The notes under the pieces are model-generated. The model made no database searches. It was not told the origin of the DNA and saw nothing but the letters and a program-made list of their open reading frames with translations. From Chthonomonadales bacterium (GTDB lineage Bacteria > Armatimonadota > Chthonomonadetes > Chthonomonadales > Chthonomonadaceae), in contig JBBQPO010000194.1 in assembly GCA_038217285.1 (NCBI GenBank), positions 1 to 11,853 on the forward strand: 11,853 nucleotides of DNA. The letters are read 5' to 3'. A program made the translations under genes and the position numbers. Below are positions 5,470 through 11,698 of the stretch, in pieces; position 1 is the first letter of the stretch, and each line of letters begins with the position of its first letter.

Positions 5470-8026
<2,557 letters not shown>

Positions 8027-8061: not shown

Positions 8062-8090
8062 ATTGTACCGCGTTGTTTGGAATAAGTCAA
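8062..8090 (-). promoter_or_regulatory. Sigma70 promoter of the furA-katG operon, with a candidate Fur-family operator over the -35
   Basis: TTGACT (8090-8085), 17 nt, TACAAT (8067-8062). The imperfect palindrome TTGACTTATTCCAA overlaps the -35. Confidence 0.75.
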
Positions 8091-8180
8091 TAGATGTTAT
8101 AGGTCCATATCTTGATCAAGTCTGTTTCCGTACTGAATCGGCTGTTATCCTGGACACTCTGTGGACCCAAAAACGACAAG

Positions 8181-8225
8181 TTCCGCTTTAGATTGCCCCT
8201 TAGCAAGGGTCGATCTAAAGCGGAA
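8181..8225. repeat. 45-bp palindrome
   Basis: TTCCGCTTTAGAT / ATCTAAAGCGGAA (13-bp perfect) plus inner CCCTT-agc-AAGGG. Confidence 0.7.
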
Positions 8226-8485
8226 TTATCCGATACAACTTTGGAGATGTAACTATAGAGCGTGCGCCTGGCTTAGAGTTCACGTCTGGAAACAAGCAGG
8301 AATTCGCCGAACGCTTAGCCAATCTTTTCTTTCGTAGTATTGTCCTGCTCCGACTGGCGCGAATGCTGAAGGAGACGATACACGTCGGTGATGTGGGGCT
8401 GCACGGGAATCGTTCGGGCAGGCTGAACAACGCCGCCGACACACTTCATGCGACGCAGTGGGAGGGATTCAAATATGCTGCCTGA
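8219..8485 (+). pseudogene. Headless reading frame, probable 3' end of a truncated gene
   Basis: Stop-free from the palindrome to TGA 8483-8485 (SGIIRYNFGDVTIERAPGLEFTSGNKQEFAERLANLFFRSIVLLRLARML...WEGFKYAA*). Its end overlaps the next start codon, as in an operon. No family recognised. Confidence 0.35.
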
Positions 8486-8708
8486 ACCTGTCAACGACCC
8501 CAACAATCCCATCCTCTCCCGTGAGCTCTATGAGCACATACTCCGCGGCGCAGCCATACCGGTGCTCCTCTTTTTGATCTGGCTCAGCTGGTTTCTCATC
8601 AATCGTCTGATGAGTCCAGAGCGGAGGCAGGAACGCCGTAATCGTGAGATTCGGAAAGCGACGGCCGAACGCAAGGCACAGCGGGAACAGGACGCCAAGC
8701 CTCTCTGA
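8475..8708 (+). CDS. Small single-pass membrane protein (77 aa), unknown function
   Basis: GGAGG RBS before ATG 8475; hydrophobic segment AAIPVLLFLIWLSWFLI followed by a charged helical tail. Confidence 0.65.
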   Translation: MLPEPVNDPNNPILSRELYEHILRGAAIPVLLFLIWLSWFLINRLMSPERRQERRNREIRKATAERKAQREQDAKPL

Positions 8709-8738
8709 ATTTTTGGGTGGAGGGAAGGGAACCTACGG

Positions 8739-9045
8739 ATGCTTACCCGCTGAGACTTCCTTTCCTCATCGGCGGTGGCGACTACCCGGACGGGGCCTGC
8801 CTGAATCTGGTACTCGACGGCAAAACGACACGAACCGTGTCCGTGATGCAGTCCGCCCGATTACGCATCAAGAGTGGGCGGCCTTTCACGAGACGCATCC
8901 CTATATTCTCAAGTCCGCCCGAAATGCCGTGGCCCAGTTCGATAAAGAGGATGCTGCCCGACCGGCATGCCCCTGGCCGGGGCTTTCCCTACAGTCTCTT
9001 GCGTTGTCATCCTGGGGAGTTCAGGGCAATGCCCTGAAGGTGTAG
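8739..9045 (+). pseudogene. Possible decayed Tat-exported protein
   Basis: Purine-rich RBS, then ATG CTT ACC CGC TGA GAC TTC CTT = MLTR*DFLSSSAVA (TRRDFL if TGA was CGA). Protein-like text in another frame follows (ITHQEWAAFHETHPYILKSARNAVAQFDKED). Confidence 0.35.
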
Positions 9046-9072
9046 AGGCGGCCTGCCACCTCATCGTGATAT

Positions 9073-11698
9073 CTACCCCACTCCTTCTCCTGTCAGATAG
9101 TGCGTGAGAGGTTCTCCAAGCAAGCTGATAAGCTTTAGCAGATGCTCCTCGACAAAGTTGTCGTATTCCGTGTCTTTATTGCTGCCTGCTGTCTTCTTGT
9201 GCAAGGCGCTTACACCCTCTTCGATAAACTCATCATAGAGCGCGAACGCCGATCTCGCGTTCTCCGTCTTTGAATGCCGTATTCTGACAAACTTCTGCAG
9301 GATGCGAAACATGACTTTGCGAAACACCGTTGTTTGCAGCCGATAGTGCTGAATCCGACTTCGGAATAACCAGTGAAAGGAGTTGTCGTCCGTCGCACCC
9401 AACAGCGTCAGGTTCCTGTACGTCAGTCCAGGCGCGTGCGAGGTGCGGGACGGCGGGACTGGCTGTCTTCGCGGTGCGCTCCGTCAGTCCAGGCGCGTGC
9501 GAGGTGCGGGGTTCGGTAGTCAGGGCTGTGCGAATATAAGATGCGTCCGGCATTTTACGTGTCGGCAGCCCGACTCCCATCTGCATGCGATCAAAATTGG
9601 CGCGGACAGTGGATAGGATGTCCAGGGTATCGTATCCTAATCGAAGCGATTTGCTTCCCCTGGTGATGGCAAGATGCCAGTCTCCCCTGGTCGAGAAGCT
9701 TCCAGGCAGCCGTATCGGAGTATATCCTGCGAAGTTCTCATCCTGGGTCGCATGGACGGCCGTGGAGTACCAGTGGCGCACGGCCACGGAGGGAAACGCG
9801 CGGCGAGGCAGTATGTCGAACCCGGTATCGGTTGCCTGAAGCATCTCCGCGTCGAACGCTTCGGCCATGAGTTTCAATGTAAAAAAGAGCGCCGCGCGCG
9901 CCACCTCGTTTTGCAGCAGACCGATAAGATTGAGAGGCTGTTTTGGATCACGCCTGGAGTTTGGCGTGTCGCGTATCTCGTCTGCGAGAGTTTGGGCCGC
10001 GCTCCATTCCTCTTCGGGGAGGCCGGTGCGTTTCGCGCGATCAACAAAAAACAAAAACTCTGAAAACCAGATCTCCAGTATCGTTGCCGTGAGATTTTCC
10101 GGCGATGTAAGATCGATATCGAAGGGCTTTAACTTGTGACCGGCTGTCCAGTCGGCAATAAAACAACAGGTCTCCAGAAATAAGCGCCATCCGAGCAGAT
10201 CGAGGTTGAATTTATGCTTGTCCAAATCATCTATTCGCTTTTTATCGTCTTCTCTGCCATAAGGTCCTTTCTCAGAAGAACGACCTTCGTCCGCCGAATA
10301 TGTATAGAACCCTCTCAAACCCTTTCGACCCAGACTGCGATCCACGCGTGCGAAACGCAGTATCTCGGCCATCTCTCTCACCTGGAACTTCGGCTTGTCC
10401 GGATCACGTTTTTTGATCCACTTTTTTCGATTCGTGTCGGGCAGAGGAATTTCGACGATGTACGCGCTCCGCCAGGCGTCCGGACGGGTTAAGATCAGCC
10501 CGAAATCCCAGGTGAACGGAACCCTGTCTTCTCTATCCTTGATCCAAAACGGATCGAAAGAACTATCCGACTCCGCTTCCGGATCGGTAGAAGTGCGTGG
10601 GACATCCGGATCTTTCGGCGTTACGACATGGTTATTTAGCAGAGGGCGGTTGATTTGAGAATACGAGTCGTTATATATCTTGGCTCTGGGGATTCCCTCC
10701 CTTGTTTTGCTGAGGTAGGCCTCTTTAAGAGGATGCAGGGAGGCGCGCGCCTCCCAGAACTCCTCGACAGCGACGACCTGGGTGTAGTTCTGCCGGGTAT
10801 CGCGCTGGAGGAAGATCGTGTCTCGGAGCAGATCGTATTCCATTTCTTCCACGATGGGCTGATCCTTTGGCTCTCCGGGCGTGATCTTGTGGAGCAATTC
10901 GCCAATCGTAGTTGCGTAGAGACGTTGGGCAGGCGTCTGTCCGAGAAGCCTCAGATGCAGCCTGACCGGTTTGGGATTCCCGGTCTCGAAGCCTTCATAG
11001 CGCTCCAAACTGGGATCGATCTCAATGAGACCGTGGTTCCGTTCGACCTGTTTGACTTCGCGGACGAGAGTTCGGCCATCCGCATGCTTTTGCGGTGTGA
11101 CGGCGATCGCGATGCGTGCATCGCCCGGTACGCGCCATGTATAGATCGTCTGATCTGCAATCTGTGCGAGTCGACTCCGGCTCTGATACACGGAGGGAAG
11201 GGCGCCCGTATCGGTGCGCGACTCCGTGATGAGCGTTGTCACACCGCGTCTCTTCAAATGGAAAATCAGCAGAGGGAGGAACTGTGAACTGGCGGCGACA
11301 TCAGGATATCGCTCTTCGATGAGAGCCCAGTCACCCAGGGTGACAACGACCTTCGCCGCTTCGGCTTGCTGCTCTGCAGTCAGCTTCGACACGTCGACGT
11401 TGTGGGGAAAGGCCCTTCGCAGCCCCTCTTCGACACATTCGGCGATAGTGGCGAACAGCACGGAAGCAGAGTTGGTATTGATCTCCAGACGCCGACAGAT
11501 AACACGAGCCTCGATCTCCGCTAATTCCCCCCATGAGGGTACGCTCCGCGTCTGAGGGGAACGCGAGGCAAGGGATCTCGTTGAGTTCCTTATACGGTGA
11601 ATGCGCGCAGCGATCTCCCAGGAGTCCACATCCCCGGTTGTGAGGTGAACGATAATTGGTATGACCTCTGAACGGGGTTCGCGCAACAGCGCTTGCAC
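9073..11698 (-). pseudogene. KaiC/RAD55-like domain fused to a solute-binding-protein-like domain; frameshifted by a 61-bp insertion; 5' end uncertain
   Basis: N-part: VVVTLGDW, HLKRRGVTTLITE, LAQIADQTIYTW, TLVREV resemble the C-terminal half of a RecA/KaiC fold. C-part: RVPFTWDFGLIL, AVRHW, LPGSFSTRGDWHLAITRGSKS, GVGLPTRK resemble family-1 sugar SBPs. Deleting one 61-bp unit joins ORF 9233..11698 to ORF 9073..9402 in frame (854 aa). Confidence 0.65.
9421..9510 (-). repeat. 29-bp exact direct repeat around a 32-bp unique segment (CRISPR-like repeat-spacer-repeat)
   Basis: CGTCAGTCCAGGCGCGTGCGAGGTGCGGG at 9421-9449 and 9482-9510; intervening ACGGCGGGACTGGCTGTCTTCGCGGTGCGCTC (9450-9481). Confidence 0.95.

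Follow-up and report, generated by a model that had tools for sequence, protein, structure and literature searches.

The nearest described relatives of the element reported here come from Escherichia coli, where Nivala, Shipman and Church are said to have described, in Nature Microbiology in 2018, off-target integration by the Cas1–Cas2 integrase of a type I-E CRISPR system, and the 'neo-CRISPR' units that it leaves. Our own example lies in a Chthonomonadales bacterium (assembly GCA_038217285.1), on the contig JBBQPO010000194.1. The whole of that contig, 11,853 nucleotides (nt), was analysed; we call it the window, and it is contig C194 of a genome in 459 contigs (6.21 Mb, 60% G+C). Within the window a protein-coding gene is split by a 61-nt unit, which a preliminary description, written from the window's sequence alone, took to be a natural ectopic acquisition event acting as a gene-breaking insertion. 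That reading has since found support in the host's type I-E system, in the geometry of the unit, in empty homologous sites and in two further units elsewhere in the genome. We consider it very probable that the type I-E Cas1–Cas2 of the host itself made the unit by integrating a spacer off target (ectopically), the part played by Cas1–Cas2 being read from the geometry.

The experimental background is best developed in E. coli. Off-target integration there is reported to have been seen with overproduced Cas1–Cas2 (PMC7054753, PMC11788318), such events are said to be favoured near IHF-like motifs (PMC9456107), and IHF itself promotes leader-proximal integration (PMC13769266; PMC9456107). A preprint says that circumstantial evidence was found in two other species (bioRxiv 10.1101/148544), and a study of Pyrococcus furiosus reports that its Cas1–Cas2 integrated off target in vitro, at sites sharing features with repeats (PMC6698737). 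Our search of the literature turned up no natural gene-breaking case; 'ectopic' there mostly denotes events within an array.

How does the locus in the window compare? Like the E. coli neo-CRISPR units, it involves the I-E subtype, a spacer-sized insert outside the array, a target duplication of repeat length and possible fitness effects. Unlike them, it is natural, it comes from an uncultured sediment bacterium, and it is one of three in a single genome, all inside genes; moreover, no HU/IHF-family gene was found in the host and no IHF-type motif by the sites. Canonical I-E adaptation likewise adds 61 nt per event, with an insert that starts with G and, as we reconstruct it here, a 28-nt block whose 29th base comes from the spacer. 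Canonical adaptation takes place at the leader-proximal repeat, whereas the target in the window is coding DNA that agrees with the repeat at 14/29 positions, has no leader and is on another contig than the array. The off-target sites of P. furiosus resemble ours in having scattered repeat features and not overall identity, those features being here a C at position 1, a GC-rich centre and 14–17 matches in 29; the P. furiosus system is archaeal, has a 30-nt repeat and, in the work cited above, was studied in vitro only. Transposons, miniature inverted-repeat transposable elements (MITEs) and casposons also leave a target-site duplication around a gene-breaking insertion, but their target duplications are far shorter than the 28–31 nt seen here, and the inserts here (30–33 nt) are unique and have no terminal inverted repeats. 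What we describe is the reaction familiar from experiments in E. coli, occurring naturally; what sets the case apart is its completeness and the occurrence of three events in one genome. Off-target integration has been known mainly from E. coli that overproduces Cas1–Cas2, and this genome provides a clean natural case.

An insertion into a conserved reading frame

A repeat search of the window returned a direct repeat of 29 nt in two copies, identical throughout and 61 nt apart from start to start (9421–9449 and 9482–9510; Table 1). The 32 nt between the copies are unrelated to the repeat, which gives the unit its 61-nt period, and chance would not be expected to produce, in 6.2 Mb, an exact 29-mer that comes back at a fixed spacing. 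Two familiar origins were considered and rejected. Slippage-type tandem duplication does not account for a 32-nt filler that matches nothing nearby or elsewhere in the genome, and insertion of a transposable element sits poorly with an insert unique in the genome and with the finding of 0 inverted-repeat pairs between positions 9000 and 10000.

Table 1. Coordinates of the unit in the window, of the gene that it interrupts and of the two further units
Feature	Position	Strand	Remarks
Target copy 1	9421..9449		29 nt, native coding sequence, 100% identical to 9482–9510
Spacer-like insert	9450..9481	-	32 nt; absent from homologues; no second copy in genome
Target copy 2	9482..9510		29 nt; upstream copy on the minus strand, still in native frame
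N-terminal part of interrupted gene	9482..11698	-	739 codons
C-terminal part of interrupted gene	9073..9420	-	115 codons + stop; out of frame through the 61-nt insertion
Frameshifted tail	9233..9481	-	82 aa + stop; would be translated instead of the native C-terminus from the assembled sequence
61-nt unit, 31+30	C41:5676-5767		breaks secreted-protein gene upstream of PQQ-like propeller gene
61-nt unit, 28+33	C137:8394-8482		breaks endonuclease/exonuclease/phosphatase-family gene

The unit lies inside a minus-strand open reading frame (ORF) of 821 residues (9233..11698), for which searches of Pfam, NCBIfam and PADLOC gave no family. In the assembled sequence the frame shifts once the first copy to be read has been passed and ends in a tail of 82 residues; with 61 nt removed it continues to 9073, and the ORF grows from 821 to 854 residues. 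The open frame of the interrupted gene amounts to 864 residues and may run off the contig end.

Eleven non-self homologues of the gene were found, five of which (P0002–P0006) were compared with three segments: what precedes the unit, what follows it when read in the frame obtained by removing 61 nt, and the tail as assembled. P0002, a protein of 903 residues, is 74% identical to the interrupted protein. A KaiC-like ATPase domain (PF06745) is present in P0003, P0004 and P0005, members of about 1250 residues; the domains of P0006 belong to other P-loop ATPase families (PF13481, PF13401 and PF13191). Judged by these relatives, the window gene belongs to a family whose longer members have a KaiC-like ATPase domain. 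In P0002 the N-terminal part stops at residue 789 and the C-terminal part starts at 790, and the native parts abut just as exactly in P0003 (1132/1133) and P0005 (1173/1174); in P0006 they are contiguous by extrapolation and in P0004 to within one residue. All five tested homologues are therefore contiguous where the window carries its unit, three of them exactly by alignment. The last 140 residues before the unit are 87% identical to residues 650–789 of P0002, and the part after the unit is 64% identical to residues 790–892 and aligns to P0003 from residue 1133 and to P0005 from 1174. The 82-residue tail gave only short chance matches to the five tested homologues.

The unit in the window is thus an insertion into a conserved frame. 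The preliminary description was right about the exact 29-nt duplication around 32 nt with its 61-nt period, and right that taking out one unit restores the frame, the shifted ORF of 821 residues becoming a conserved one of 854. It had also held that one copy is native and the rest inserted, which agrees with the homologues running contiguously over the site and with the 32 nt being no native sequence. The gene has lost its conserved C-terminal 115 residues and, with them, presumably its function. Because the duplication is exact and the downstream part is still open and still 64% identical to P0002, we take the event to be recent. A search of 40 relatives found no close copy of the gene, one weak match in genome G023 apart.

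Could the unit be absent from the DNA altogether, or could the broken genes and the type I-E system come from different organisms, through some fault of assembly or binning? An assembly in 459 contigs, for which the best run reaches a word depth of about 6, invites the question, as does the composition of the window contig, which is somewhat atypical (11th percentile). Sequencing run X1, a sediment metagenome that holds 0.93 of the sampled words, is probably the sample behind the genome assembly. One of its Logan contigs (record 2, 1445 nt, depth 5.8) agrees with positions 8072–9516 of the window at every base and without a gap, and includes both copies and the filler; its end lies 6 nt beyond copy 2 and 12 nt short of the start of the next contig, at 9528. 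Since the depth is about 6 and there is another gap in cover at 9923–9978, we read these breaks as thin cover. Two assemblers thus arrive at an identical 90 nt, every junction word included, the second of them probably working independently on the same reads, and the duplication, for which the preliminary description had wanted support from reads, is present in their assembly. No joint skipping the unit, as an empty allele would give, was seen in the X1 contigs, which cannot reveal a rare one; in runs X2, X3 and X5 parts of the stretch have relatives only, with 9053–9637 left uncovered. The same geometry recurs at three loci on three contigs; contig C41 (which bears one of the further units) and the I-E contig's flank are both about 90% identical to the same congeners; and contamination is estimated at 0.88%. 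An artefact of either kind strikes us as very unlikely indeed.

The type I-E system of the host and two further units

On the minus strand of contig C74 lie, in this order, cas3, cse1, cse2, cas7e, cas5e, cas6e, cas1e and cas2e, a complete type I-E operon. Seven of the eight Cas proteins exceed the NCBIfam whole-protein cut-off, Cas1e with 378.9 bits (cut-off 215.6) and Cas2e with 72.8 bits (cut-off 33.15) among them, and Cas3 passes by models of its core and HD domains. After the cas genes come an AT-rich leader (36% G+C) and then an array that reaches the contig end, with 51 full repeats of 29 nt, 47 of which read CGGTTCACCCCCGCGTCTGCGGGGAATAG on the plus strand. Its 50 spacers measure 32 nt (43 of them), 33 nt (six) or 34 nt (one), with a period of 61 nt. 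The repeat base next to the spacer varies (47, 2 and 1), G being the usual last base (47/50 repeats). In E. coli type I-E systems the last repeat base arrives with the spacer, so that the true duplication is 28 nt and the insert 33 nt; since E. coli works in this way, the varying base here fits a last base brought by the spacer. The unit in the window has the geometry of this array, with its 29-nt repeat, 32-nt spacer (43/50) and 61-nt period, and the type I-E system that the preliminary description had supposed is there, as a full operon and an array to match.

Does the system belong to this organism? The far flank of C74 matches four of four congeners at 81–90% identity and its composition is typical of the bin, from which we conclude that the intact I-E system resides in the host, its contig being tied to the core DNA that the genus shares. 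Cas1e scores above its cut-off in 8 of 41 related genomes (the host included), and in none of the four congeners, which are 73–98% complete. The 3 kb adjoining the cas operon are not shared by the congeners either, and by these comparisons the cas island looks recently gained.

There is a second CRISPR locus in the genome, with a 37-nt repeat, on contigs C56 and C73, and its geometry does not fit the unit. Just upstream of its cas1, overlapping the cas1 start by 4 nt, is a gene for a 957-residue fusion of a group-II-intron-type reverse transcriptase and a CRISPR-associated primase-polymerase (C56:20897-24762; L030:11898-15763). A Cas10-like gene lies near the fusion, and the 37-nt-repeat array is on C73.

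A scan of the genome for exact duplications of at least 16 nt, 30–120 nt apart, yielded 182 pairs when those in arrays are counted. Apart from the two arrays, exactly three isolated pairs have a period of 61: that of the window (29+32), C41:5676 (31+30) and C137:8394 (28+33). The preliminary description had proposed looking for more duplications of this period, and the proposal was rewarded with the last two. A looser scan (25/28 matching, periods 45–90) brought nothing new at 60–62 apart from one tandem region at 60. For periods of 50–80 just one other isolated non-tandem pair exists, at 66, and the rough probability that three of four isolated pairs would fall on a pre-set 61 is 1.3e-4.

The two further units were put to the same test of empty sites. 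At the C41 site the congener G003 (92% DNA identity) and G013 have a single copy and no filler; in a third relative the alignment ended within the copy. With the unit removed, the 218-residue frame of the secreted protein aligns to G003 over 218/218 positions free of gaps, and as assembled 26 residues align. The gene broken on C137 owes its family assignment to PF03372 in the homologues P0014 and P0017; four of four tested homologues (of seven non-self ones found) are contiguous across the site, and removal of the unit lengthens the frame from 273 to 353 residues. For a defence role of the broken genes PADLOC gave no hits, save one weak partial one for P0014. All three 61-nt units are independent, recent insertions, each of which breaks a conserved gene frame. 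Their inserts show no relation to one another or to other parts of the genome, and are not a mobile family.

The pair with a period of 66 is an insertion too. At C67:11813-11907 an exact 29-nt duplication surrounds 37 unrelated nt, 66 nt in total, at the 3' end of a Dps-like gene whose stop codon lies inside copy 1, and the site in the congener G001 (93% identity) holds a single copy without filler. This unit fits neither CRISPR system: it has no GC-rich centre, and its insert does not start with G. We also looked in a second I-E genome of the same family, G015, the array of which has a 61-nt period, scanning 2.8 Mb of its 4.86-Mb contig C1. The scan gave one candidate of 60 nt immediately beyond a conserved gene, with 33 nt enclosed by an exact duplication of 27 nt (C1:85889-85975; L036:5889-5975); no relative with an empty site was found for this candidate. 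A 29+33 pair in G015 proved to be part of a repeated element and was dropped.

Target sites, inserts and the proposed integration reaction

The reaction that we envisage would begin when the I-E integrase took a 28-nt coding stretch, weakly repeat-like and GC-centred, for a repeat. Two attacks 28 nt apart, one at each end of the stretch, would ligate in a 33-nt prespacer, and fill-in of the two gaps would copy the 28 nt. The product would be a pseudo-repeat, a G with a 32-nt spacer, and a second pseudo-repeat, an addition of 61 nt or one array period; because 61 nt are added, each event shifts the frame by one. The same process would have run at least two further times in this genome, at C41:5676-5767 and C137:8394-8482, breaking a gene each time. 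In the window the preferred register, chosen as the best fit of the target to the host repeat, has a duplicated block of 28 nt (9421–9448) and an insert of 33 nt (9449–9481), so that base 9449 goes to the insert, which on the minus strand starts with G; the 29th matching base of the duplication would then be a coincidence.

What might have drawn the integrase to these sites? Target likeness was scored as the best ungapped fit to the host repeat in the orientation of the CRISPR RNA (crRNA), against a null of 20,000 random sites on both strands with four offsets. The best fits are 17/29 for C41 (plus strand) and 14/29 for both the window and C137 (minus strand). In the null, at least 14 matches have p = 0.077 and at least 17 have p = 0.0026, and Fisher's combined p for the three sites is 0.0016; by this measure the targets seem to resemble the host repeat weakly. 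In the best register the repeat and the three targets share C1, C11, C15, G16, G20 and A26, and GCGCG or CGCGC occurs in the central 14 nt of all three sites, against 5.5% of random sites, the motif having been picked post hoc. All three 33-nt inserts start with G, the usual last base of the host repeat. The preliminary description had likened the duplicated 29-mer to a type I-E repeat, and here it needs correction: the repeat that it gave is not that of the host, and the true one matches at 14/29 (p about 0.08).

The search for the origin of the inserts found none. BLAST of the window insert found no phage match and, among plasmids, only matches with E of at least 0.3, and in the genome itself the best match, 22/32 on contig C217, was rejected as a source. 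Exact scans of viral contigs gave 0 hits for all three inserts, and those of metagenome contigs 0 hits for the window and C137 inserts. The hope of the preliminary description that the segment of 32–33 nt would lead to a protospacer and a protospacer-adjacent motif (PAM) was disappointed on both counts. Two true leader-proximal spacers of the array, taken as controls, also gave 0 hits in the viral contigs, and since these drew blanks as well the empty searches are uninformative either way.

Several findings weigh against ectopic integration, and they are best faced together. For none of the three inserts did the searches yield a protospacer or, hence, a PAM. The window target taken by itself, with its 14/29, does not resemble the repeat significantly (p about 0.08), and the G at the start of the inserts is weak evidence, because the window and C137 inserts give G in either orientation. 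No AT-rich, leader-like flank adjoins any of the three sites, where G+C is 47–57% against 36% in the leader; in the window the flank is coding DNA of 57% G+C. Nor is there an IHF-type motif by the sites, the best matches to a 13-nt consensus having 3–4 mismatches, which is background, against 2 in the host leader. Read support consists of contigs only, at a depth of about 6 and probably from the source sample. The fourth event, on C67, with its 29+37 = 66 nt, does not fit. Lastly, the total is 61 each time, yet the duplication appears to differ in length between the units (28, 29 or 31 nt). We put the variation down to chance matches at the borders, for which three or more extra bases would have p of about 0.05–0.08 per site, but a process that fixes the total length would give the same picture.

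This last point deserves an alternative of its own, in which the three units come from some other, undescribed process whose additions always total about 61 nt, a short insert being offset by the length of the target duplication, and the match to the CRISPR period is coincidental. The constant total with its varying duplication is what one would expect of it. The insertion on C67, with its empty site in G001, suggests that another process with long duplications may be at work here, and the C137 insert has a fair hairpin (−16.7 kcal/mol). The other two inserts have no marked hairpin, though, and the inserts are neither copies of the genome's own DNA nor alike; the total equals the host I-E period exactly, three times out of three, and the targets are more repeat-like than chance. 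We know of no transposase family that gives 28-nt duplications. Such a process is in our judgement improbable, and we continue to favour integration by the host Cas1–Cas2.

The layout of repeat, spacer and repeat raises a different possibility, namely that the unit is a functional mini-array, or a solitary repeat unit, kept for its crRNA. The C41 pseudo-repeat can indeed form a repeat-like hairpin (−9.7 kcal/mol). The window pseudo-repeat, however, folds at −3.8 kcal/mol against −13.2 kcal/mol for the true repeat, and because it folds poorly no crRNA would be expected from the window unit; a repeat of 14/29, a weak fold and the lack of a leader all set this unit apart from a working array. The repeats are native coding sequence, different at each locus, and every unit destroys a conserved reading frame. 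The duplications, moreover, are still exact, which speaks for recent events and not for conserved ones. We regard a retained function as a very distant prospect, and the pseudo-repeats left by ectopic integration are probably not processed to crRNA.

HU/IHF proteins and a possible cost of carrying CRISPR

Three models found no HU/IHF-family gene in the host genome, which is 95% complete. The family (PF00216) was found in one of 41 genomes of the order, near-complete single-contig ones included, and in 9 of 14 control genomes. Perhaps the I-E integrase of this lineage works without an HU/IHF protein, its choice of site being relaxed and guided by a GC-rich pseudo-palindrome instead of the leader, so that ectopic integration becomes a recurrent mutagenic cost of CRISPR; we put this forward tentatively, and hold it to be rather doubtful. 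The apparent lack, in the lineage, of the family to which E. coli I-E owes its fidelity to the site offers a testable reason for sloppy site choice, and fidelity of integration may be lower without IHF, which is an idea for experiment and not a finding.

This genome, in which the cas island looks like a recent gain, has three gene-breaking ectopic units to set against 50 spacers retained in the array, so that, in one genome at least, the hazard can be quantified. If site choice is indeed relaxed in this way, ectopic events would be a measurable mutagenic cost of carrying CRISPR, and also a standing source of new repeat–spacer units. The three loci provide real target sequences for a direct integration assay.

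Two observations stand apart from the insertions. Many contig ends in the genome hold one of two repeat families, the first a tandem unit of 41 nt and the second a 21-nt word that recurs at a distance of 46 nt (C220:1-143, C50:1-128 and C340:10-119, for example, and also C26, C37, C80, C203, C243, C260 and C344 at about 55–120); these are probably repeated elements that break the assembly. In the window itself, katG (catalase-peroxidase, 5470–7872) appears as two ORFs through a single in-frame stop at 6835–6837 on the minus strand, in a well-conserved stretch, and the stop is either a nonsense mutation or a base error at low depth.

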